From contig CP011214.1 of the NCBI GenBank assembly GCA_001029755.1, positions 711,258 through 775,257 on the forward strand: 64,000 nt of DNA, given 5' to 3'. Under the pieces are notes generated by a model, which saw nothing but the letters and a program-made list of their open reading frames with translations, was not told the origin of the DNA and ran no database searches. Made by a program: the position numbers and the translations under genes. Origin of the DNA: Candidatus Woesebacteria bacterium GW2011_GWF1_31_35. Its GTDB lineage: Bacteria; Patescibacteriota; Microgenomatia; UBA8517. Shown one piece after another: positions 647 through 11,619 of this stretch (the first letter of the stretch is position 1; every line of letters starts with the position of its first letter).

Positions 647-1390
647 ATGTTTTATAGTATACTAATAGCTATAAAAATGAATAAGTATTCAAGGCGTGCA
701 AGTGTAGAAGAAAAAAAGAATATTAAAAATGCATATCTTTACGTAGTGTTATCAATTGCTGCAATAGGTTTTTTAATTTTTTTAGGACTTCCCACATTAA
801 TTAAATTTGCAGGCTTTTTAGGAGACTTGGGAAAATCTAATAAACCTGTTGATATAACTGATATAACACCTCCTGCACCACCACAGTTTGATTCAATTCC
901 AGAATATACTAATAATGAAAAATTAGAAATTGCCGGAACGTCTGAAAATGGGGCTGTTGTTACTATAACTGCAAATGGTGATTCAAGTGAAGTTGTTGCA
1001 AATAGTGATGGAAGATTTAGTTTTTTGTTTAATTTAAACAAAGGTGATAACACAATTGAAGCCAAAGCAAAAGATACTGCGGGAAATGAAAGTACTAAAA
1101 CTAAAATTATCAAAATAATATTTGATAATACTGAACCTAGTTTAGAGAACTTAAGTCCATCTGATGGATTATCTTTTTATGGTTCCGGGCAAAGGCAATT
1201 AGTAATTAAAGGAAACACAAATGAAAAAGTAAATTTATTAATTAATGAAAGAGTAGTATCTGTTAAAGACGACAAAACATTTTCCTACGCAACCACCCTT
1301 TCTGAAGGTGTAAATTCATTTGAAATAAAAGCAACTGATATGGCAGGTAACGAAACCAAATCATCCTTTTCTGTTAACTTTACTCCCTAA
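647..1390 (+). CDS. membrane-anchored or secreted protein with two bacterial Ig-like repeats
   Basis: The N-terminus has a basic stretch followed by a hydrophobic helix (VVLSIAAIGFLIFLGL). Two similar repeats of about 90 aa each end in AKDTAGNES and ATDMAGNET, which are typical of Big/Ig-like surface domains. The track start at 644 is TTG, so I used the ATG at 647. Confidence 0.5.
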   Translation: MFYSILIAIKMNKYSRRASVEEKKNIKNAYLYVVLSIAAIGFLIFLGLPTLIKFAGFLGDLGKSNKPVDITDITPPAPPQFDSIPEYTNNEKLEIAGTSENGAVVTITANGDSSEVVANSDGRFSFLFNLNKGDNTIEAKAKDTAGNESTKTKIIKIIFDNTEPSLENLSPSDGLSFYGSGQRQLVIKGNTNEKVNLLINERVVSVKDDKTFSYATTLSEGVNSFEIKATDMAGNETKSSFSVNFTP

Positions 1391-2434
1391 TCCTAAAAGG
1401 ATAAAAATCCAATACATTACCCAAGGATAAAATAGACTATTCGCAAATGTAGAGTGAATTAAAACTATCAAGAAACTAATAGTTAATAAAGGATAACTTG
1501 GAATTGAAAAGATAAAACTTATAAATAAAAATAAACCTACAATTCCAGTTGTAGCTAAAATAAATAATATTGAGGAATCTGATCCAAAACATGAATGAGA
1601 AGTAATATTAGTATCATTTAAATAAATTTGTCTTGCAGGACACAAATTATTAAAACCAATCCCGATAACAGGAGATTTAGTTATAATTTTTAAAGTTTCT
1701 TTGTAATTTATAATTTTTAAATTAGTAGATGAAGTTCTTACTAAATTAACTCCTTCTCCACCCATGTTTTTGGGAAGAAAAAATATTGAAATTAAAAATA
1801 AAAATACGATTAAATATTTTTTAAAATAAATTAGTAATAGTATAAATATTAGATATGAAACCCTTGAATACGTAAATAAAATACTTATTCCTAAAAATAT
1901 TAAGCTTAATTTTCTATTTTCTTTTAAAGCAATAATCGATCCTAGAACTAAGATAATAGATGTAAAAGTAGGATCCAAAAAAGTTCCCACTAATCTATAC
2001 AAATGATCATCCCAACCTAAATATTTTAAAGCAACAAGGTTGGGCCAATTTATATATTGGATCCATCCAAAGACTGCAGTCACAATTGAAATTGATAAAA
2101 GTGAATTTATTATAAATTTTCTGTCCTTTTGTGATTTGAAAAAATTGTATATAAAAATTGGAATCATTGAATAAAACAAAAGTCTTACTCCATACATCAA
2201 ACCCTTTACCAAAAGATCACTTTTGAGAATAAATACATTTATACCCCAAGAGAAAAATCCAAAAAGAATAAAGGAAAGTAGGTAGATATACCATGAAGGT
2301 ATTTTGGGCTTTCTAAGCAGTGTATAAACCACAATTAAAAAAACAGTCACGTCAAGAAAACTAATTGGTCCTAATTTTGCAATTTGTCCAAATGGAAAAA
2401 TTACTAGGCTTGTAAAAAGTAAAGCTTTGTCCAT
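1361..2434 (-). CDS. O-antigen ligase/polymerase family (Wzy_C-like) integral membrane protein
   Basis: About 10 predicted TM helices. The TYSRVSYL motif within a periplasmic loop matches the Wzy_C/WaaL arginine region. It neighbours a flippase and glycosyltransferases. Confidence 0.55.
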   Translation of the reverse strand: MDKALLFTSLVIFPFGQIAKLGPISFLDVTVFLIVVYTLLRKPKIPSWYIYLLSFILFGFFSWGINVFILKSDLLVKGLMYGVRLLFYSMIPIFIYNFFKSQKDRKFIINSLLSISIVTAVFGWIQYINWPNLVALKYLGWDDHLYRLVGTFLDPTFTSIILVLGSIIALKENRKLSLIFLGISILFTYSRVSYLIFILLLIYFKKYLIVFLFLISIFFLPKNMGGEGVNLVRTSSTNLKIINYKETLKIITKSPVIGIGFNNLCPARQIYLNDTNITSHSCFGSDSSILFILATTGIVGLFLFISFIFSIPSYPLLTISFLIVLIHSTFANSLFYPWVMYWIFILLGLGSKVNRKG

Positions 2435-2991
2435 GATAAAAATGAATGTAGAGATTGCATCAAACTAAACTCAAAACCTCTACCTAATAATAGATTATAG
2501 ATTAATTTTAAAATTGGGTAAAAAATAATTTTACCTAAGTTTGCTTTTTTACCTTCCTTATTATTTTCTAAAGCATGTAAATCGGACTGAAAATTTATTT
2601 TTTCTATGTAATCATGTAGATTTTGAGCTGTTGTGTGAATAATATAATTTTTTAATTGTTTTATAGGTCCTTTAACCTGCCATACTTCATGAACTCTCCG
2701 AACCCATTTACCAGAATTTTTCTTTGCAAGCCTCAAAACTCTATCATGACCAATAATTTTACTTAAAAATTTAATTCTTCTCTTTATATAATAACCTTCA
2801 TATTTATTTGGTAAATTATTTATTTCATTTACAATTTCATTTTTTAATTCATTGGTTACTATTTCATCTTTATCTAAAAACAATATCCAATCAGATTTTG
2901 ATTTTTCTAAAAGATTATTTCTTTCTAATGAAAAATTGCTAATATTCTTTTTATCAAGAGTAATTATTTCTAAATTATTTTTTTGAATCAT
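2404..2991 (-). CDS. GT2-like protein lacking the N-terminal half of the GT-A fold (195 aa)
   Basis: DWILFLDKDE resembles the DWVLxLDADE motif of KdtX/WaaE-type family 2 glycosyltransferases, but only about 38 aa precede it and there is no N-terminal IIPTYN-type segment. It has an ATG start and a 4-nt ATGA overlap with the upstream flippase gene. Confidence 0.4.
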   Translation of the reverse strand: MIQKNNLEIITLDKKNISNFSLERNNLLEKSKSDWILFLDKDEIVTNELKNEIVNEINNLPNKYEGYYIKRRIKFLSKIIGHDRVLRLAKKNSGKWVRRVHEVWQVKGPIKQLKNYIIHTTAQNLHDYIEKINFQSDLHALENNKEGKKANLGKIIFYPILKLIYNLLLGRGFEFSLMQSLHSFLSWTKLYFLQA

Positions 2992-4211
2992 GTTTGTTTA
3001 AGTATTTTAATAGTCCAATACATAGACATCGGAATTGTGACAATAGTTCCAATTATTGTTGAAACTGCAGTTCCTCTAATACCAAACTTATTGGTTAAGG
3101 GAAAAATTGTTAAACCTAAACCTAAAATTCCAACAAGTGTAATCCAAGTAATCCAATTTTGTTTCCCAATTCCTAAAAATAATGGGAAAACCGAATTAGT
3201 CAAAGCTTTTAAAATTCCAAAAATAGCCAAGATTTGCAAAACCCCTACAGTATCAAGCCAATTTTTACCGAGTAAAATATTTACTGTTTGATATGGAAAA
3301 AGGAAAATTAGAATACCAAAAGGAATAACTAACGCAAAAGTTCCTAAAAATGTTTTCAAAAATACCGATCTCAAGTTTTTTAAATCTTTTTTATATTTCG
3401 AATAGTAAGGAAAAGTAACTTTTGAAAATATTTCACCCATTTCAGAGACAGGCAAAGAAGAAATTCTATATGCTTGTTGATATAACCCAAGTGGATATAC
3501 TCCCAATACTTTCCCAACTACCAAGTCATCTCCATGCTGAAATATATAATTAAAAACCCCTGCAAATGTAATCCAGATACCTTTTTTAATTACAAATTTA
3601 AAACTTTCCAAATGAAAAATAAGTTTGGGTTTGGGTGAGATAAAGAAAAGAGAAATAAAAACTTCAACTAAAGCTCCTGCGATAAGACCACATATAAGTG
3701 AAAGTTCACTTTTTGTTAAGAAACCTAATAAAATTGCTGTTATAGCTTCTACAGAAATAAGAATTCCTTTAAATATAAATTCTTTTTTAAAATTTAAATT
3801 TTTTTGAAATTTAACCTCAGCTGGGTTTATAAAACCACGAATTAAAGGTACAAATGCTGTTAAATAAAGAATTTTAATTGCTGAAGGATTATTAAAAAAC
3901 TTAGAGATTAATGGTGTTAAAAGAAAAATAATTAAACTTAAAAATATGCCTCTTATTATAGACACAATCCAAGAAGAACTAATATGTTTTTCTAGACCGT
4001 CTTTTTCTTGTATCAAAACTACGTTAATCCCAGTCTCTGTGATTATTTCTAAAAATCCCAAAACTAAAGATGCTATTCCAAATATCCCAAATTGTAATGG
4101 ACTTAAAATTCTTGCAAGTATCAATGTCTTTATAAAAGCAAATGCTTTAGCACCAATTCTTAAGGCTCCCATCCAACTTAATCCATAAATTATATTGGTT
4201 TTATTAATCAT
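2988..4211 (-). CDS. polysaccharide flippase (Wzx/MOP superfamily)
   Basis: The 407-aa polytopic protein has the N-terminus MINKTNIIYGLSWMGALRIGAKAFAFIKTLILARILSPLQFGIFGIASL, which is typical of oligosaccharide flippase/PST family proteins. Confidence 0.75.
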   Translation of the reverse strand: MINKTNIIYGLSWMGALRIGAKAFAFIKTLILARILSPLQFGIFGIASLVLGFLEIITETGINVVLIQEKDGLEKHISSSWIVSIIRGIFLSLIIFLLTPLISKFFNNPSAIKILYLTAFVPLIRGFINPAEVKFQKNLNFKKEFIFKGILISVEAITAILLGFLTKSELSLICGLIAGALVEVFISLFFISPKPKLIFHLESFKFVIKKGIWITFAGVFNYIFQHGDDLVVGKVLGVYPLGLYQQAYRISSLPVSEMGEIFSKVTFPYYSKYKKDLKNLRSVFLKTFLGTFALVIPFGILIFLFPYQTVNILLGKNWLDTVGVLQILAIFGILKALTNSVFPLFLGIGKQNWITWITLVGILGLGLTIFPLTNKFGIRGTAVSTIIGTIVTIPMSMYWTIKILKQT

Positions 4212-4216
4212 TGGAA

Positions 4217-5182
4217 TTATTTTATTTTACTTCTTACGCCTATTGTACCAGCTAAAAATCCATACATAGTAACAAAATCTGTTAAAACTTGAATTATAGG
4301 TAAATATAGCCTAGCTAAATTTCCCTTAATTAAACTTTTCCATTTTATTATTGGATAAAATAAGTATAAAGTCACCAAAATTATAAAATATGGAAGTGAG
4401 GAAGGATTGAAAAAAGAATAAACTAGTAGTAGTGTTCCTATTAAATAGCGGGTAAATATTGCTGATATTCTAATATTGTGCGACGAAAGTTGTTTTGTTG
4501 GATGCCACCAGATTTTAGCTTGTCCATCCCCTTTTGAATAAACAAAAACTTTTTGAAGAAAAGTTTTTAAATAAAGTGTCTTAACTTCACCCCACTCTAC
4601 CCTAGCAGATTTTTCGCGTATAATTTTCACGCCATTTTTCACGCATTTATAGAAAAATTCTGTATCTTCACCACCTCTTTCTAAATTTTCATTAAACCCT
4701 CCAACTTCTTCCCAAACTGATTTTCTAAAAGCAACTGACCTTGCAGAAGGCAAAAAGGCTTGATCAAATTTTTGAGGTAATATTCCAAGATATACTCTTA
4801 TAGCTTTCTGAAATGAATTTATGTAAGGCATATTATAAAAGCCAGCAATTAATCCTACTTTTTCATGCTTAAAATGGTATGTTATTTTTTCTAGCCAGTC
4901 TTTATTTGCGATACAACCTGAATCAGTTGTTGCAATAATATCACTATTTGCTAGTTCTATTGAAATGTTTCTACAATGCGCAATAGTTCCTTTCTCGATA
5001 AAAAATTTTATTCTATTATCTTTTTTTAAAAAATGACGAATTATTTCTACAGTTTTATCTTTTGATCCTCCATCTACAATGATAATCTCATCTGGTCTTT
5101 TAGTTTGGTGAGTAAGAGAAATTAACAAACTACCAATAGATTTCTCTTCATTTAGGGTAGTAATGCAGATGGATATTTTCAT
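4217..5182 (-). CDS. glycosyltransferase family 2
   Basis: The N-terminus is KISICITTLNEEKSIGSLLISL, there is a DGGSKD (DxD-like) motif, and the C-terminal 80 aa are hydrophobic, as in membrane-anchored GT2 enzymes. Confidence 0.8.
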   Translation of the reverse strand: MKISICITTLNEEKSIGSLLISLTHQTKRPDEIIIVDGGSKDKTVEIIRHFLKKDNRIKFFIEKGTIAHCRNISIELANSDIIATTDSGCIANKDWLEKITYHFKHEKVGLIAGFYNMPYINSFQKAIRVYLGILPQKFDQAFLPSARSVAFRKSVWEEVGGFNENLERGGEDTEFFYKCVKNGVKIIREKSARVEWGEVKTLYLKTFLQKVFVYSKGDGQAKIWWHPTKQLSSHNIRISAIFTRYLIGTLLLVYSFFNPSSLPYFIILVTLYLFYPIIKWKSLIKGNLARLYLPIIQVLTDFVTMYGFLAGTIGVRSKIK

Positions 5183-6321
5183 TTTTTGTGATTAGTGTAA
5201 ATCAATATAAATATTGTAAGCCAAAATAGTATTAATTTAGGATAATAATTAAATTGAGAAAGAATTGAGATAGAGCTTAATAAAGATAATATATAAAGAA
5301 GTTTTTCAAATTTAGTATTTTTTACAGAAATAAAGCACAAAAGTATTAAGGGCATAATTGAAACATAAAGAAATCTCATATTAGATGTTATTATTTGCCT
5401 AGAAAAATCAGAAGGGAAAAACAAAAAGGGTATAAAATTTAAAACTGATATCACAATTAAACTTTTATTAATTTTTGACTTTGAAATAAATAAAAATATA
5501 GGAATCAAAACCCAAATTAGATACTCAGAAATTAGTGCCTCCACGAAGAGATATAAACCATTTGATGTAAGTAAAGGTTTATATGTTTCTACTAATTGAA
5601 AATCACTACTTCCTGTAAATCCCAAGATGTTTATTGGATAGAAAGGGTTATTAATTAATAAATAATTTCTAAAATACCAAAAACCACCAATCGTCAAAAT
5701 TGGAAGGAAAAGATAGATTAAATTCTTTATATTAATTTTTTTAAATATTACTTTGAAATAAACAAGAAATAAAATTAATAGATAAACTAAACCTGAATAT
5801 TTAACTCCAATTATTAATCCCAAAGATAAGCCTAACGGCAGTAAACTTTTTAATTTTTCATTTTCAAATTTTTTAATAAAAAGTAATGCTAAAGAGAAAA
5901 ATATCAAAAGCCAAATATCTATCGTCTGATTAGGAATTAACCTAATAATCGAATTAAGTGTAATTACTGATACAGAAAATATATTTGAAACATATTTATT
6001 AATTCCATATTCATCGGAAAGGATTTTTAAAACAAAAAACAAAATAATAATTGCAACAATGTTAAAAAAACCTAATGGGATCCCTAATAAAATAAATATT
6101 GAAAGTATTACTTCTCCTACTGCAGGATAAAATCCCAAACCATGACTTAAATTTGGAGGATTTAAAATATTGCCTTTTAAAATACTTTCTGCAATTGGAA
6201 TATGATAAGTAAGACTATCAGATTCATTTAATAGATTAGGGTTTGTTGTTAATGCATTGAATGAAAAATAAATAATAATAAATATAAATATCCCTATAAA
6301 AATTTTTGTTAATATCTTCAT
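5179..6321 (-). CDS. polytopic integral membrane protein (glycan polymerase or GT-C-like), hypothetical
   Basis: The 380-aa protein is hydrophobic almost throughout (about 10 TM helices) with no soluble domain. Its glycan-assembly role is inferred from the surrounding GT/flippase genes. Confidence 0.4.
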   Translation of the reverse strand: MKILTKIFIGIFIFIIIYFSFNALTTNPNLLNESDSLTYHIPIAESILKGNILNPPNLSHGLGFYPAVGEVILSIFILLGIPLGFFNIVAIIILFFVLKILSDEYGINKYVSNIFSVSVITLNSIIRLIPNQTIDIWLLIFFSLALLFIKKFENEKLKSLLPLGLSLGLIIGVKYSGLVYLLILFLVYFKVIFKKINIKNLIYLFLPILTIGGFWYFRNYLLINNPFYPINILGFTGSSDFQLVETYKPLLTSNGLYLFVEALISEYLIWVLIPIFLFISKSKINKSLIVISVLNFIPFLFFPSDFSRQIITSNMRFLYVSIMPLILLCFISVKNTKFEKLLYILSLLSSISILSQFNYYPKLILFWLTIFILIYTNHKK

Positions 6322-6322
6322 A

Positions 6323-7174
6323 TCATTTCCATAATTTTAAATAACTATTTGTAACATCATTCCAAGTTACATTTTTAATTTTTGAATAGTTTTTTTCAAT
6401 TTCATCCCAATAGTCTGCCTTTAAAGGATTATTAGGAAACGTCATTATTTTACATTTTAAATTTCTAGCTTCTAAATAAGATAAATATCCTGAAGGCACA
6501 CAATATTCTGCTTCTTGTAAATATTTTTCTGGATCTTTGCTTCCTAATACTTTCCCGAATTTTCTACATTTATCTTTGAGGTCTCCTACACCTATAAATG
6601 TTATTTTATAGACAGGATGTAACTTTAACCACTTTAAAAATTCAAGAAGTCCAGTATCTTTTTCAAGTCTTCCTAAATAAATAATTGTGTTTGAAATTTT
6701 ATGAATAGCAGACTCAATATTAATTTTATCTACTGCTCCATAAATAATAATATCACTTTTAATTCCATACCACTTATTTATATAATCGCCTACTGAAATA
6801 GTTTTGAGGGATAATTTATTTGCAATTCTTTTTTGAAGTATATTTATAAACGGTATTGGATATTTTCCTTCCCAACCATGAAATGTAGTAAATACACGTT
6901 TATTAGGATATAAAAACTTAAATGGCAAATACCAAATAAATACATCATGAACATGAACTATTTCGCTTTCCAAAATTTTCTTTCTATTTTTGAATAACCA
7001 AAACCATATATATAAAAGTCCTAATATCTTTATGTGTGGGTAATTAATATCTTTTTCAGAAATAGTTTCAATTGTATTTCCCAATCTTATTAGATTGAGG
7101 GTTATTTTATAGCAATGTTTTTCAACTCCACCTACGTGAGGCCAGACAAATTTAGATATAAAAAGTATTTTCAT
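6323..7174 (-). CDS. compact GT-B glycosyltransferase (GT4-like)
   Basis: MKILFISKFVWPHVGGVEKH has a Glyco_trans_4-like N-terminus and IIYLGRLEKDTG resembles the C-domain start of GT4 enzymes. At 283 aa it is short for a GT-B protein. Confidence 0.5.
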   Translation of the reverse strand: MKILFISKFVWPHVGGVEKHCYKITLNLIRLGNTIETISEKDINYPHIKILGLLYIWFWLFKNRKKILESEIVHVHDVFIWYLPFKFLYPNKRVFTTFHGWEGKYPIPFINILQKRIANKLSLKTISVGDYINKWYGIKSDIIIYGAVDKINIESAIHKISNTIIYLGRLEKDTGLLEFLKWLKLHPVYKITFIGVGDLKDKCRKFGKVLGSKDPEKYLQEAEYCVPSGYLSYLEARNLKCKIMTFPNNPLKADYWDEIEKNYSKIKNVTWNDVTNSYLKLWK

Positions 7175-7851
7175 TTCTTTTTTGCAACTAAAACAACCAA
7201 ATTTGGCTTGCGTACTTTTAAAAATTTGTTTATTAAGTTTTTTATAAAATATCTGTCTTTAAATGCAAATAAATATATTTCCTTTTTAATCTCAAAAGAC
7301 GATTTTTTTAACTCATTTTTTATAATATTATGATTGTAAATTCTAAGATGCCCATTTAATAATTTATCTTTTTTTGATTCATTTAAGGGGACAGAAACTA
7401 TTAACAAGCCGTTATTTTTTAATACTTTTTTAATTTGTAATAACGAGATATCTATTTTATTTTTAGGTATGTGTTCTAATATATCAATCGCTAAAACACA
7501 ATTAAAAAAATTATTTTTATAAGGAATTTTAAATATGCTAGCCTTTTTAAAATCCCCTTTATAAAATTTTTGAGCAAAATTTATAGCATAATTTGAAATA
7601 TCAATTCCATATACTGATAAATTTAAATTAAGCTTCTCAATTAAATACTCAATATAACCATAACCGAAACCGATATCTAATATGTTTCCAGATATTTTTT
7701 TTAATTGACTAATTATCAATTTATTTTTATGAATAAAAACTGGAGATTTCAAAATTATCTTTCTGTTATTCTTTAGTTTTTCATCCCAAAACTTATCTGT
7801 ATTTGGATTTGGTAAATTATCTTCTTGACAACAATATCTTTTAAGTTTCAT
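7171..7851 (-). CDS. class I SAM-dependent methyltransferase
   Basis: ILDIGFGYGYIEYLI is motif I (GxGxG) and LAIDILEHIP is motif II/post-II. The track start at 7878 is TTG and would overlap the divergent gene at 7863. I used the in-frame ATG at 7851 (MKLKRYCC). Confidence 0.7.
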   Translation of the reverse strand: MKLKRYCCQEDNLPNPNTDKFWDEKLKNNRKIILKSPVFIHKNKLIISQLKKISGNILDIGFGYGYIEYLIEKLNLNLSVYGIDISNYAINFAQKFYKGDFKKASIFKIPYKNNFFNCVLAIDILEHIPKNKIDISLLQIKKVLKNNGLLIVSVPLNESKKDKLLNGHLRIYNHNIIKNELKKSSFEIKKEIYLFAFKDRYFIKNLINKFLKVRKPNLVVLVAKKK

Positions 7852-7862
7852 ATTTATATTGG

Positions 7863-10016
7863 ATGAATAAACATACAAAATTATTTCTATCTAGTCTAAT
7901 ATTTCTAATTGCTTCTATAGTATATATATTTCTTCCTAGAAATTCTCTATCTGCCGAAACTTTAAGTAGTTGGACAAATTCTGCTTCAATGCCAGATATC
8001 AATGGTGTTGCTAGTCACTATTCATTTATATCTAATAATAAACTTTATATATTAGGTGGAGCTAATTCTGAAGTGATATCTAGTGGTTTATACTCAACAA
8101 TATCTCCGAACGGATTGTTATCTTCTTGGACTAACACCACCTCGCCACTTAATCAGCTTTGGCACTCTGGAACAACTTATGATAGATATGTTTATATACT
8201 TGGAGGAGCAAATTCTTCAATCCAAAACATTAAAGATGTTGTTGTTGGAATTATAGGATCAGATGGAAATATATCGTCTTGGAAAACTACAACACAGTTA
8301 CCACAAACTTTAGCACTTGGAAGTGCTATCACTTTAAACAATAGAATTTATTTTGCGGGAGGATCAACTAATCGTTTTGAATATCAAGCCTCAAGAGATG
8401 AAATATATTTTGCAACAATAAACCCCACAGATGGAACTTTAGACTCATGGACTCTCGCAGGAAATTTACCAGAACCAATGGTGGGTTTTGGAATGGTTGA
8501 AATAAATGGCTATGTTTATATTATTGGAGGCAAAAACTTATCAAATCAAATATTGGATTCCGTTCAAAGAGCCTTTGTCAATCCTGATGGTACATTGGGT
8601 AATTGGAATTCTATGTTTTCACTTCCAAAAGCAGTGACAAGATCAGGAGTAGCCAAGACAAGTAATTTACTGGTTTCTGTAGGAGGAATCACTGTCTCAG
8701 GGATTACTGACTCAGGGATTATTGATGATGTTTTTTTTGCCAAAATAAAGCCTAATGGAGAAATTGATGAATGGACAACAAGCCCTTACAAACTACCAAA
8801 AATAAATTGTTGTTCCCCACTTGTTTCTTGGAATAATCATTTATATTTAACAGGGGGACATTACGGAACTCCGTATGGTTATTATAATGATGTCTTTACA
8901 GCTAAAGTCATTTTTGACACTCCAGAATACATATCTTTAGACGTGCCAAATTTAAAACAATATGAAGGTGGTTGGCAAAATGATTTTTATGGACATACAA
9001 ATAAAACAATTAAAGATTATGGTTGTGCATTAACTTCAGCTTCAATGGTTTTGAAATTTTTTGGACACAATATTGATCCTAGAGAGTTAAACACCTGGCT
9101 AAAAGATCAAAATGATGGTTACATTAGGAATAATTTAGTTAACTGGCTTGCAATTTCAAGATACACAAAACTTCATGAATCAATATCTTCTCCAACACTT
9201 GAATATTTAAGATCATCATTTGAAGCTAATAAAATTCTTAATAATCTTCAAAACAACCTACCCACAATCGTTAAAGTTCCTGGTCATTTTGTTGTCACCA
9301 AAAGCCAAACTGAAACTTCTTTTGGAATAAACGATCCTGGATATAATGACAGAGATGAGTTATCACCTGAATATCCTGATAATCATATCCAATCCTTAAA
9401 CACCTACACACAAAGTCAAACAGATTTATCATATATGATGTTTATAGCCGATAAAGATATTACATTTAAACTTTTTGATTCTTCCAATAATCTTGTTAAT
9501 AATACCCAGACTTATATAGAAGAACCAATAAATGAATTAGACGGATCAAATAAAAGTGGGGAGCCCCTTTCAATCTTAATTTTTTCAAAACCTCCATCTG
9601 GTGAATATAGTTTAGAAATAACAGGTCCAACTGGACCATATCAATTTGATAGTTATTTATATGATGTTAACGGTAACGTAACACAAAATACATTTAATGG
9701 ATACATTTTTGATAACGAAAAAGGTACTTATTTAATTTATTTTAATGGTAATAAAAACGTAGGAGTTTCATATTCTGAAATATACAAATCCTTACAAAAA
9801 GCATTTGAAAATAAATTTATTTTAAATAAAGGAATACTAACTGCAATAAAAGCTCAAATTCAAGCCTCAGAAAAACTTATTAGTAATAGTATGATTTTTC
9901 CTTCCAAAATTATCATTCAAACCTTGATAAAACAAATCCAAAATCTTACGCCAAAATTTATTGACCCAGAATTTTCTTTATCTCTCCTGTCAGATTTGAA
10001 GTCCTTAATTTATTGA
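7863..10016 (+). CDS. secreted or anchored protein with a Kelch-type beta-propeller (about 6 blades) and a C39-like (papain-fold) peptidase domain, plus an about 250-aa C-terminal region of unknown function
   Basis: An N-terminal hydrophobic anchor is present. Six repeats carry (S/D)W(T/K)...LP and Y(I/F)xGG motifs, which are Kelch-like. DYGCALTSASMVLKFFGHNI then supplies a Cys and GHFVVTKSQTETSFGINDPGY a His and Asp/Asn, which matches the Peptidase_C39_2/YvpB-like signature. Confidence 0.6.
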   Translation: MNKHTKLFLSSLIFLIASIVYIFLPRNSLSAETLSSWTNSASMPDINGVASHYSFISNNKLYILGGANSEVISSGLYSTISPNGLLSSWTNTTSPLNQLWHSGTTYDRYVYILGGANSSIQNIKDVVVGIIGSDGNISSWKTTTQLPQTLALGSAITLNNRIYFAGGSTNRFEYQASRDEIYFATINPTDGTLDSWTLAGNLPEPMVGFGMVEINGYVYIIGGKNLSNQILDSVQRAFVNPDGTLGNWNSMFSLPKAVTRSGVAKTSNLLVSVGGITVSGITDSGIIDDVFFAKIKPNGEIDEWTTSPYKLPKINCCSPLVSWNNHLYLTGGHYGTPYGYYNDVFTAKVIFDTPEYISLDVPNLKQYEGGWQNDFYGHTNKTIKDYGCALTSASMVLKFFGHNIDPRELNTWLKDQNDGYIRNNLVNWLAISRYTKLHESISSPTLEYLRSSFEANKILNNLQNNLPTIVKVPGHFVVTKSQTETSFGINDPGYNDRDELSPEYPDNHIQSLNTYTQSQTDLSYMMFIADKDITFKLFDSSNNLVNNTQTYIEEPINELDGSNKSGEPLSILIFSKPPSGEYSLEITGPTGPYQFDSYLYDVNGNVTQNTFNGYIFDNEKGTYLIYFNGNKNVGVSYSEIYKSLQKAFENKFILNKGILTAIKAQIQASEKLISNSMIFPSKIIIQTLIKQIQNLTPKFIDPEFSLSLLSDLKSLIY

Positions 10017-10506
10017 CAATAGATCCTAAAACTACAATTTGTAACAAAATAAAATAAATTAAAAATAATGGTTTTCTAGAATCAGTCCCAATAAAAATTG
10101 AGTGAAATGAAACAAAATAGAAAGCTAAATAATTTAATATATGCAGTTTTCTCCAATTTGTTTTTAACCAACCTGAAATATTTCTAAATTTCACTGCAAT
10201 AACTGCAATAGTTACTAAATAAAAACCAATTCTACCTAAATTTATATAATGTTCATATGTTCCTTGGCATAATACACAAACATCAACAAAAACATATAAA
10301 GGGTCTAATTTCCCTATTGTGAAATATCTAAATAATAAAAACAAAACAGGATGAAGAAAAACAAAGATATAAGCTAAAATTCCATTCAACATATGAAATT
10401 TAATTGCTTTCCTGTTTGCACCAAGATAAATTTGTAATGCTAATAAGCCTAAAGCAATAATCCCTGTTATTCTTTGAAGTAAATTAATAATCTCTGAATT
10501 TGTCAT
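9958..10506 (-). CDS. ferric-reductase-like / cytochrome b561-like di-heme transmembrane protein
   Basis: Of 5-6 TM helices, two each carry a His-x13-His pair (FHMLNGILAYIFVFLHP and LHILNYLAFYFVSFH). This matches the bis-His heme ligation pattern of ferric reductase/MsrQ-type domains. Confidence 0.45.
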   Translation of the reverse strand: MTNSEIINLLQRITGIIALGLLALQIYLGANRKAIKFHMLNGILAYIFVFLHPVLFLLFRYFTIGKLDPLYVFVDVCVLCQGTYEHYINLGRIGFYLVTIAVIAVKFRNISGWLKTNWRKLHILNYLAFYFVSFHSIFIGTDSRKPLFLIYFILLQIVVLGSIVNKLRTSNLTGEIKKILGQ

Positions 10507-10593
10507 TTATTAATCTTATCACGAAACTTTATTTTGACAATTTATGCTTGCTTTTTCTTGTTTTGCACATATAATCGGACTATCTAGATTGCT

Positions 10594-11619
10594 ATGACAA
10601 AGGAAATTACTGAACACATTGAAGTTGTTGAGAAACTTTCATATATTAAGGTTTTAACTGAAAAGTTTAACCAAACAACACAAATCGCGGCAATTGCAGC
10701 ATATGAAAAATCAGGTTTAGGAAACAAGGAAGATGCCGACCAAGCAGCTGTTGATGTCATGCGTAGATTATTAAATGGAATGGATATATGTGGGATAATT
10801 GAAGTAGGTGAAGGTGTAAAAGATAAAGCTCCAATGCTATATATAGGTGAATTGGTTGGTTCGGGTAAAGGACCGGGTCTATCTATAGCTGTTGATCCAG
10901 TTGAAGGAACTACTGCAACAGCAAAATTGATGTCTGACGCAGTTTCTGTATTAGCTGTGTCTGAAAGAGGAGGTATTTTAAGACTTCCTCCTGAACTTAT
11001 TTATATGGACAAAATTATAACTGGTCCACAAGCTAAAAATTCTGTTGATATAAATGCTCCTGCAGCAAAAAATTTAAAAAATATTGCAGAAGCATTAGGA
11101 AAGAAAATTTCCGATTTAAGAATTAAGGTACTAGATAGGCCTCGTAATGAAAAATTAATTAGAGATATAAGAGAAACAGGTGCGAAAGTTGCATCAATAG
11201 ATTATGGAGATCTAATGCCAGGAATTGGAACTTGTATACAAGGTTCTGATATCCACGCAGTAATGGGAATTGGTGGTGCTCCTGAGGCAGTATTGATTGC
11301 AGCTGGAGTTCGTTGTCTTAATGGAGGTATTCAAGCTAAACCTTGGACAGATAATAAAGATACTAAAAAAATCCTTGAAGAAAAGGGATTTTTTTTAGAC
11401 AATGTTTATACGGAAAAAGGTCTAGTATTTGGTAATTTAATTATTTTTTGTTCAACCGGTATAACAAAAGGAGAAATACTTGATGGAGTAAGAACTTTTA
11501 AGGGTGGTATTAGAACACACAGTTTAGTTCTTGCAGCTCATAATGGTTATTCATCTGCTAAATTTATCGACGATACTGTTATTACTAACGTAAATGAAAT
11601 TGAATTTAGAAAACAATAA
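10594..11619 (+). CDS. glpX: fructose-1,6-bisphosphatase class II (GlpX)
   Basis: IAAIAAYEKSGLGNKEDADQAAVDVMR, IAVDPVEGTTATA and MGIGGAPEAVLIAAG are GlpX family signatures, and the 341-aa length fits. Confidence 0.85.
   Translation: MTKEITEHIEVVEKLSYIKVLTEKFNQTTQIAAIAAYEKSGLGNKEDADQAAVDVMRRLLNGMDICGIIEVGEGVKDKAPMLYIGELVGSGKGPGLSIAVDPVEGTTATAKLMSDAVSVLAVSERGGILRLPPELIYMDKIITGPQAKNSVDINAPAAKNLKNIAEALGKKISDLRIKVLDRPRNEKLIRDIRETGAKVASIDYGDLMPGIGTCIQGSDIHAVMGIGGAPEAVLIAAGVRCLNGGIQAKPWTDNKDTKKILEEKGFFLDNVYTEKGLVFGNLIIFCSTGITKGEILDGVRTFKGGIRTHSLVLAAHNGYSSAKFIDDTVITNVNEIEFRKQ

Follow-up and report, generated by a model that had tools for sequence, protein, structure and literature searches.

What does an exported protein that joins a Kelch propeller to a papain-fold peptidase domain do at the surface of a bacterium belonging to the Candidate Phyla Radiation (CPR)? 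The question is raised by one gene in a stretch of 64,000 nucleotides from Candidatus Woesebacteria bacterium GW2011_GWF1_31_35 (contig CP011214.1, positions 711,258 to 775,257; hereafter the window), whose G+C content of 24-33% is low, as in CPR genomes. A preliminary description of the locus had taken the coupling of Kelch to C39 as its distinguishing feature and had proposed a targeted surface protease. We found instead that Kelch is only one of many exchangeable modules on a conserved core, and we conclude that the gene belongs to a conserved, syntenic, exported C39-core family of Microgenomates whose binding and catalytic modules have been swapped independently. The domains and the chemistry are of known kinds; the family is unstudied. 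Our literature search found no paper on the Kelch plus C39 architecture or on this core family in CPR bacteria, and the secreted C39 peptidase of Microgenomates has received a one-line mention only (PMC7143001).

The open reading frame (ORF) list gives exactly the coordinates and the 717-aa length first described, and in a homologue search the product matched P0001, a hypothetical protein from Candidatus Woesebacteria bacterium RIFOXYC1_FULL_31_51, with 100% identity. A profile search of the window found no second C39-core or Kelch paralogue. The gene and its parts are as follows.

7863-10016, plus strand: whole gene, a 717-aa exported Kelch / C39_2 / beta-sandwich / four-helix-bundle protein (ORF list, ATG start)
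7863-7955, plus strand: signal sequence, aa 1-31 (n-region MNKHTK, hydrophobic core aa 7-25, candidate signal-peptidase-I site between NSLSA and ET)
7965-8912, plus strand: six-bladed Kelch beta-propeller, aa 35-350 (Pfam, blade motifs, Foldseek)
8925-9377, plus strand: Peptidase_C39_2-type papain-fold catalytic domain, aa 355-505
8958-8960, plus strand: codon of Gln366, putative oxyanion-hole residue in a VPxLKQ motif, invariant
9024-9026, plus strand: codon of Cys388, putative catalytic nucleophile in the motif GCALTSASM, invariant
9285-9287, plus strand: codon of His475, putative catalytic base in the motif GHFVV, invariant
9333-9335, plus strand: codon of Asp491, putative third member of the triad in an INDP motif, invariant
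9390-9764, plus strand: beta-sandwich domain, aa 510-634, opening with an invariant DLSY strand
9768-10010, plus strand: C-terminal four-helix bundle, aa 636-716, FIMAH-like (AlphaFold2 helices 637-649, 656-674, 678-695 and 702-716)

The most conserved of these domains is the catalytic one. Peptidase_C39_2 (PF13529) matches aa 359-492 with 44.0 bits in the full protein and 46.7 bits in the C-terminal half (cut-off 24), and it matches all 37 homologues scanned. Peptidase_C39 (PF03412) matches the same residues more weakly, at 26.8-29 bits against a cut-off of 22. Across 32 full-length homologues whose identity to the window protein is 31-77%, Gln366, Cys388, His475 and the run Asn490-Asp491-Pro492 do not vary, and the Gln/Cys/His/Asp set is still invariant once non-Kelch relatives are added, for 37 homologues in all. 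Mean pairwise identity is highest in the C39 domain (51%), followed by the propeller (36%), the beta-sandwich (35%) and the helix bundle (20%).

For a profile search of the PDB we excised the C39 domain; a profile that kept the Kelch columns had returned Kelch entries only, and a single-sequence search with the C-terminal half gave chance matches only. The C39-only profile aligns Cys388, His475 and Asp491 with Cys17, His96 and Asp112 of ComA and with the active-site motifs of LahT150 (NHFVV, INDP) and of 3ERV. The E-values of these matches are weak (0.001-0.008), but Pfam scores and fold are in keeping with the alignment. The AlphaFold2 models place Cys388 at the start of the central helix (388-399), His475 at the start of the strand 475-482, and Asp491 after the following strand; as modelled, this is the canonical papain-clan arrangement. 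Gln366 is a putative contributor to the oxyanion hole by analogy with what is known of the papain clan. Because the Gln/Cys/His/Asp set is invariant, aligns with ComA, LahT150 and 3ERV, and is correctly placed in the model, and because the domain is the best conserved of the protein, the C39 domain is very probably catalytically competent. The family scores, the conservation and the fold comparison thus all bear out the C39-like papain fold with Cys and His/Asp motifs that had first been read from the sequence.

The full-length model was built on 32 homologues (mean predicted local distance difference test score, pLDDT, 91.3; predicted template-modelling score, pTM, 0.55). We modelled aa 350-717 separately on 37 sequences (pLDDT 95.8, pTM 0.91), because Foldseek searches with the full-length model were saturated with Kelch matches. 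Given the pTM of the C-terminal half, the catalytic domain, the beta-sandwich and the helix bundle are predicted to form one rigid body, and the lower pTM of the full-length model indicates that the junction of this body with the propeller is flexible. In fold comparison, the model of the C-terminal half resembles 3ERV and other papain-clan enzymes.

3ERV, putative C39-like peptidase of B. anthracis: root-mean-square deviation 2.7 Å over 138 residues, table value 14.3
7NSN, multi-domain GH92 mannosidase: table value 13.3
6MPZ, LahT150 double-glycine protease: table value 12.9
1X9Y, prostaphopain B: table value 12.6
8Z4H, pseudomurein endoisopeptidase PeiR: table value 12.1
5XE8, ComA peptidase domain: table value 11.2

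The C-terminal region, at first called uncharacterised and put at about 250 aa, is real; it comprises about 210 aa and consists of the beta-sandwich and the four-helix bundle. In the window protein it matches no Pfam family, neither CBM32, PPC nor FIMAH. One homologue, P0036, the only one of the 37 members to do so, matches FIMAH (PF22888) over the aligned helix-bundle region (36.2 bits, cut-off 24.8).

At the other end of the protein, aa 7-25 form its sole hydrophobic segment (Kyte-Doolittle). The signal segment was modelled as a lone helix, with pLDDT falling at aa 25-30, and equivalent small-x-small sites are present in the aligned homologues. From its sequence, the N-terminal segment looks like a cleavable Sec signal peptide and not an anchor; the "signal anchor" of the preliminary description was therefore right as to export and probably wrong as to anchoring, since the NSLSA/ET site that follows the hydrophobic core looks cleavable.

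The propeller is equally well defined. Kelch families match over aa 36-235 and beyond, led by Kelch_KLHDC2_KLHL20_DRC7 (PF24681; aa 52-233, 61.6 bits, cut-off 50), with Kelch_1 at 36.5 bits (cut-off 20.1) and Kelch_6 at 36.4 bits (cut-off 25.3). The motif DGxLxxW...LP occurs six times (W37, 89, 140, 196, 248 and 304), as do the GG pairs that end the blades, and the modelled propeller strands span aa 53-349. The top PDB matches of the full-length model are all six-bladed Kelch domains (KLHL12, NS1-BP, LZTR1 and YjhT; E 1e-17 to 1e-20, TM score about 0.75-0.82 when normalised to the target). Pfam scores, motif sets and fold matches together settle the estimate of about six blades. The likeness to NanM/YjhT extends to a signal peptide, which both proteins have before a six-bladed bacterial Kelch propeller. 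The Pfam NANM score is borderline (45.4 bits, cut-off 45), and the match is confined to short stretches of the window protein. We rejected the possibility that the protein is an orthologue of this sialic-acid (N-acetylneuraminate) mutarotase, as the scores of TIGR03547 (28.7 bits, cut-off 256) and PRK14131 (28.1 bits, cut-off 416) fall short.

The protein has three cysteines in total, Cys316, Cys317 and Cys388. The first two form a vicinal pair (8808-8813) in the last Kelch blade, which is kept in most, not all, homologues. A Cys-Cys pair is also found, as INCCSPL, in the Kelch-lipase proteins described below.

How tightly is the propeller bound to the catalytic core? The homologue search returned about 40 full-length Kelch plus C39 proteins and two further groups, one with the same C-terminal half behind other N-termini (for example PF06439/DUF1080 or BNR/sortilin) and one with the same Kelch half ahead of alpha/beta-hydrolases of the LCAT/PGAP1/Palm_thioest type. 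Run exhaustively on 1.84 billion representatives, clustered at 50% identity, phmmer with aa 350-717 as query puts the core family at 344 clusters or more (E ≤ 1e-30); at E ≤ 1e-10 the number is 814. In most of the 150 best-scoring clusters the core stands behind an N-terminal region of 200-440 aa. Scanning one genome per species yielded 206 loci, of which we kept the best 80 for the locus analyses; nearly all of those kept are metagenome-assembled genomes (MAGs) of Microgenomates (Woese-, Levy- and Pacebacteria). In a census of ORFs and profile hidden Markov model matches, these loci hold 81 C39 ORFs, 70 with the beta-sandwich, 41 with a detectable helix bundle and only 13 with Kelch. The window domains themselves match the family profiles with E-values of 3e-69 (C39), 5e-47 (beta-sandwich) and 2e-26 (helix), in profiles that include the window sequence by construction. 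The 70 of 81 ORFs with the beta-sandwich, the synteny described below and the 344 clusters support its membership independently of those profiles.

Pfam searches of 61 N-terminal regions gave the following assignments.

Kelch: 12 of 61 loci
3keto-disac_hyd/DUF1080: 6 of 61 loci
GH130-like: 3 of 61 loci
Laminin_G_3: 2 of 61 loci
PQQ propellers: 2 of 61 loci
Sortilin/BNR: 2 of 61 loci
GH59_C lectin: 2 of 61 loci
GH32N: 1 of 61 loci
RCC1-like: 1 of 61 loci

Trimmed, non-iterative phmmer separates the N-terminal modules of these 61 loci into 17 or more sequence clusters. A ConA-like FxDxF...W...DNV signature marks the largest, which has 24 members; Kelch is second with 12. (We discarded an iterative jackhmmer clustering, which had fused Kelch with ConA-like groups, probably via linkers or signal peptides.) Only a minority of the conserved cores (C39 and beta-sandwich, with or without the helix bundle) thus carry Kelch. 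The modules are mostly ConA-like lectin folds or other propellers, folds typical of carbohydrate binding or processing, and Pro/Thr-rich linkers lie between modules in homologues.

Some family members stand apart. A Levybacteria locus (L022) has two tandem C39-core genes (5680-7695 and 9179-11149) whose N-terminal modules differ, one being BNR/sortilin-like; this suggests local duplication followed by module exchange. More distant C39 relatives that lack the beta-sandwich occur at L080 (6124-9702) and L086 (9851-13429) and at L072, L077, L084, L085 and L087; these are proteins of 1192 aa from ANME-2/Methanosarcinales MAGs and, from Verrucomicrobiota (Chthoniobacter group), proteins of about 210 aa with a single domain. 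L012, L014, L018, L019 and about 35 more are titled "uncultured Gammaproteobacteria/Pseudomonadales" (MAG TPA_asm); these contigs show Microgenomates-type synteny at a G+C content of 0.33-0.45, and the taxonomy of the records looks mislabelled.

Whether the modules have been exchanged in place can be read from the flanks of the gene. Its immediate neighbours in the window, including glycosyltransferases (GT), are these.

7171-7851, minus strand: divergent class-I S-adenosylmethionine-dependent methyltransferase, first gene of the glycan operon (Pfam Methyltransf_11/25/31)
1361-7174, minus strand: envelope-glycan cluster of Wzy_C-like protein, short GT2, Wzx-type flippase, GT2, PMT-like GT-C membrane protein and GT4 (Pfam)
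9958-10506, minus strand: convergent 182-aa polytopic membrane protein (ORF list), its 3' end overlapping that of the focal gene by 59 nt

The start codons of the methyltransferase (7851) and the focal gene (7863) are separated by 11 bp, and the two genes still adjoin each other in loci of Woesebacteria and Levybacteria where the identity of the focal protein has fallen to 31%. Orthologous loci have the same glycan genes upstream in the same order. Homologues of the 182-aa membrane protein, which shows a weak match to the Ferric_reduct transmembrane family (E 0.0015, below the cut-off), lie at the same position in many loci, with the same overlap in L008. In the window it is followed by glpX, a phosphoribosyltransferase gene, tRNA-Val, the IMP dehydrogenase (IMPDH) gene, lepB (signal peptidase I), parB, rodA, ileS and ftsZ/ftsA/murG/ftsW. 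Peptidoglycan genes start only from 16 kb (rodA, then ftsZ/ftsA/murG/ftsW), at least 6 kb from the focal gene and with housekeeping genes between, so that the link to the peptidoglycan and division set is one of synteny and not of an operon. The first reading had placed the gene between two glycan loci; this holds upstream, where the envelope-glycan cluster lies, and does not hold downstream.

A recurrent frame surrounds homologues of 31-64% identity whatever their N-terminal module, namely methyltransferase<GT4<...GT2<Wzx< upstream and (membrane protein<) (IMPDH>) lepB> parB< rodA< downstream. Among loci that are equally close to the window by their flanks (ParB about 90%, LepB about 73% and GT4 about 54% identical), one carries Kelch (L001) and others carry other modules (L007-L013), while the C39 core is about 60% identical in all of them. 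Because the flanks are equally close and the core equally conserved where the modules differ, we conclude that the N-terminal module has been replaced in place among close relatives. The possibility that the module type tracks the adjacent glycan cluster found no support at the level of gene content, since the same Wzy/GT2/Wzx/GT2/GT4/methyltransferase set accompanies both Kelch (L001) and ConA-like modules (L009, L011-L014).

The catalytic half has been exchanged as well. In other Woesebacteria the orthologous slot is held by proteins that join Kelch to an LCAT/PGAP1-like alpha/beta-hydrolase (P0054 and P0062) and have neither the C39 core nor its beta-sandwich and helix; their alternative catalytic module matches the Pfam families LCAT, PGAP1 and Palm_thioest.

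L089, 108-2372: Kelch plus lipase-type gene
L090, 7001-9646: Kelch plus lipase-type gene

Upstream, L090 has the Wzx-GT2-PMT-like-GT4-methyltransferase order of the window, and downstream it has lepB-parB-L27-L21-rodA-ileS. Identity to the window is 79% in ParB and 38-40% in Kelch. Since these Kelch-lipase proteins occupy the same slot without the C39 core, either half of the protein can be exchanged at this single orthologous position, and the catalytic half has been swapped at least once.

What might such a protein do? The targeted surface protease first proposed remains the most reasonable functional reading, and the architecture on which it was built (exported, Kelch, C39_2) stands. We are fairly confident that the product is an exported, active cysteine hydrolase; that it follows the logic of a targeting module joined to a warhead is a somewhat favoured interpretation; and that its target is external, as opposed to the producer's own wall, is a tentative choice to which we give rather less than an even chance. 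In this proposal, the protein would be a modular cysteine endopeptidase, exported by the Sec pathway, whose propeller would bind a ligand, most likely a glycan, and so position the enzyme on a cell-envelope surface. A glycan (or other surface ligand) is the most likely partner by analogy, because almost all N-terminal modules of the family have folds of carbohydrate recognition or processing. Cys388, activated by His475 and Asp491, would attack a peptide or isopeptide bond of an envelope substrate and form a thioacyl intermediate, with Gln366 helping to form the oxyanion hole. The target would lie outside the producer's essential wall metabolism, in the envelope of a partner or host or in cell debris (necromass). 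The slot would supply an auxotrophic CPR bacterium with peptides, and the lipase variants would supply lipids, peptidase and lipase being alternative means to breach or harvest an external target. Replacement by a lipase and rapid turnover of binding modules both fit a target of this variable kind. The proposal also fits a complete Microgenomates genome that was reported to encode just four secreted peptidases, including one C39, and no amino-acid or lipid biosynthesis (PMC7143001).

Extended to the whole family, the proposal becomes one of a polymorphic secreted-hydrolase slot of Microgenomates, an idea that we put forward as speculative and on balance unlikely. The slot would have a fixed position, at least 17 binding modules and a C39 or LCAT/PGAP1-like warhead, exchanged independently among close relatives, and would determine which partner or host envelope a CPR cell attaches to and harvests. 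It would then be a functional analogue of polymorphic toxin/effector loci or of the receptor-binding-protein cassettes of phages.

Several observations weigh against an external, glycan-directed enzyme. Kelch propellers also bind proteins. The gene is positionally conserved and apparently a vertically inherited core gene, which fits self-directed housekeeping. It adjoins envelope-glycan genes, lies near rodA and the division and cell wall (dcw) genes, and has its 11-bp divergent intergenic region in common with the glycan operon.

The alternative that survives best is accordingly an endopeptidase of the producer's own wall (an autolysin or "space-maker"), which would cleave its stem-peptide or cross-bridge bonds while the N-terminal module tethers it to the wall glycopolymer of the adjacent cluster, much as choline-binding and SLH modules do in Gram-positive autolysins; we regard it as a serious but not a probable explanation. 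The locus is conserved and apparently single-copy across Microgenomates, divergent from the methyltransferase/GT4/GT2/Wzx/Wzy cluster and syntenic with lepB-parB-rodA, and the closeness of the two start codons suggests shared regulation. In L003 and L004 the homologues have cross-bridge genes of the FemAB type nearby, and the enzyme resembles wall-lytic cysteine peptidases. A lipase-type hydrolase at the same slot in some Woesebacteria is, however, hard to square with an essential role in peptidoglycan, and the type of N-terminal module does not track the gene content of the adjacent cluster (L001 versus L009 and L011-L014). Pfam scans found no LysM, SH3, SPOR, CW_7 or PG_binding domain. Peptidase_C39_2 is listed among the enzymatically active lysin domains of phages of Gram-positive bacteria (PMC8223927, PMC10541714), but this listing is bioinformatic, and we found no biochemical demonstration in the literature. 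The C-terminal half itself gave no tblastn match in 50,697 phage records and no match to a PHROGs family or to NCBIfam. The two explanations could be partly reconciled if the N-terminal module holds the enzyme on the producer's glycan coat and the warhead acts on a neighbour.

We consider it improbable that the enzyme is instead a non-hydrolytic acyl-transfer or cross-linking enzyme (transglutaminase-, sortase- or BtrH-like), in which an amine or hydroxyl would resolve the acyl-enzyme and a peptide, protein or acyl group would be attached to an envelope glycan or protein. The papain-clan fold houses transferases as well as hydrolases, the families of the alternative module (LCAT, PGAP1, Palm_thioest) include acyltransferases and deacylases, and the adjoining glycan-assembly cluster encodes Wzy_C (ligase-type) and PMT-like proteins. 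No sequence feature separates transfer from hydrolysis, however; the best structural matches are hydrolases (LahT150, ComA, staphopain and PeiR), 3ERV being uncharacterised, and no acceptor or donor gene is evident nearby.

More improbable again is a free extracellular double-glycine leader peptidase that trims bacteriocin-, pheromone- or pilin-like precursors, a role offered in passing for the secreted C39 of Microgenomates (PMC7143001). The score of Peptidase_C39 above its cut-off, and a fold and triad equivalent to those of LahT150, ComA and PCAT1, are what such an enzyme should show. Against it, neither the protein nor its neighbouring genes have ABC domains, and about 80 related loci likewise show no ABC transporter fused to the protein or beside it, so that we rejected identity with the canonical C39 of ABC transporters. 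No double-glycine precursor or bacteriocin-type genes were recognised near the window gene or in about 80 related loci, in a small-ORF search that was not exhaustive. Lectin-type N-terminal modules and a tandem resembling a carbohydrate-binding module (CBM) at the C-terminus have no rationale in leader processing, and replacement by a lipase at the same slot would be hard to explain. Least credible is a binding-only adhesin whose C39-like domain is a non-catalytic scaffold, like that of HlyB: a propeller and beta-sandwich domains are typical of adhesins, but to our knowledge degenerate C39-like domains lack the catalytic Cys, whereas here the Gln/Cys/His/Asp set is invariant over 37 sequences and the wider family, in the most conserved domain of the protein.

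Three further observations concern the setting of the gene. With start codons 11 bp apart, both divergent promoters must lie inside the coding region of the opposite gene. A nearly leaderless mRNA would result from the best sigma-70-like match (TTGACA-18-CATATT, 7825-7854), whose end lies 8 nt upstream of the ATG; the promoter scan as a whole was not above the shuffle background (23 sites versus 20.5 ± 4.5). Several homologues have long Pro/Thr/Ser linkers, typical targets of O-glycosylation, which the window protein lacks, and the hydrolase itself could be a substrate of the cluster with Wzx, Wzy_C (O-antigen-ligase/O-oligosaccharyltransferase-type) and PMT-like proteins. Finally, GC skew is persistently negative over positions 14000-64000 of the window and positive only at 10-14 kb (cumulative -4.4 over the window), with most genes on the minus strand; a complete Microgenomates genome is reported to show a disparity in strand composition (PMC7143001).

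These results matter because CPR bacteria (Patescibacteria) make neither amino acids nor lipids, and very little is known of the enzymes at their cell-cell interface. The family is among the very few secreted peptidases of Microgenomates (PMC7143001) and occupies one locus across Woese-, Levy- and Pacebacteria, and its module swapping is what one would expect where proteins recognise variable surfaces. Should the enzyme act on a partner's envelope, the type of N-terminal module would mark host or substrate range in the genome, and the enzyme would be a handle for co-culture. Should it act on the wall of the producer, it would represent a new class of peptidoglycan endopeptidases that are guided by the glycans of the wall. 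Either would be the first assigned function for a stand-alone C39_2 peptidase and would give a role to the tandem of CBM-like domain and four-helix bundle.

How, then, does the window protein compare with known systems? It has in common with the peptidase domains of ComA, LahT150 and PCAT1 a papain-like fold, an equivalent Cys/His/Asp triad and a Peptidase_C39 score above the cut-off. It differs from them in having no transporter fusion, in its Sec signal and extra domains, and in the position of its Gln, 22 residues before the Cys as against about 6. Staphopain, streptopain SpeB and interpain are zymogens with N-terminal prodomains and no lectin-type modules, and identity to them is 14% at most. 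The pseudomurein endoisopeptidases of the Pei group use pseudomurein-binding repeats, a different kind of binding module from that of the window protein. The modular plan is nonetheless alike, in that PeiR, PeiW and PeiP and the C39_2 lysins of phages join a catalytic domain to a wall-binding module (PMC4592898; PMC8223927).

For the C-terminal tandem, the closest likeness is to NnGH92 (PDB 7NSN), a secreted Gram-positive glycosidase that acts on foreign cell walls and ends in a CBM32 beta-sandwich followed by a four-helix bundle (PMC10167667); one core-family member exceeds the FIMAH threshold. The catalytic domain of NnGH92 is that of a glycosidase and not a peptidase, and the window protein matches no CBM32, PPC or FIMAH model. 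For the catalytic domain, the closest comparison is with stand-alone C39_2 peptidases of the 3ERV type (B. anthracis, YvpB type), which are single-domain and functionally uncharacterised (PMC10318531). Both are exported, have no transporter fusion and share the papain-like fold, the GC..TS.AM Cys helix and the H..V....DP His/Asp motifs. Identity is only 14-19%, and enzymes of the 3ERV type are essentially single domains of about 200-260 aa, whereas the window protein has a 316-aa propeller ahead of the catalytic domain and a conserved beta-sandwich and helix bundle behind it. By score, fold and motifs, we conclude that the window protein is a member of Peptidase_C39_2.

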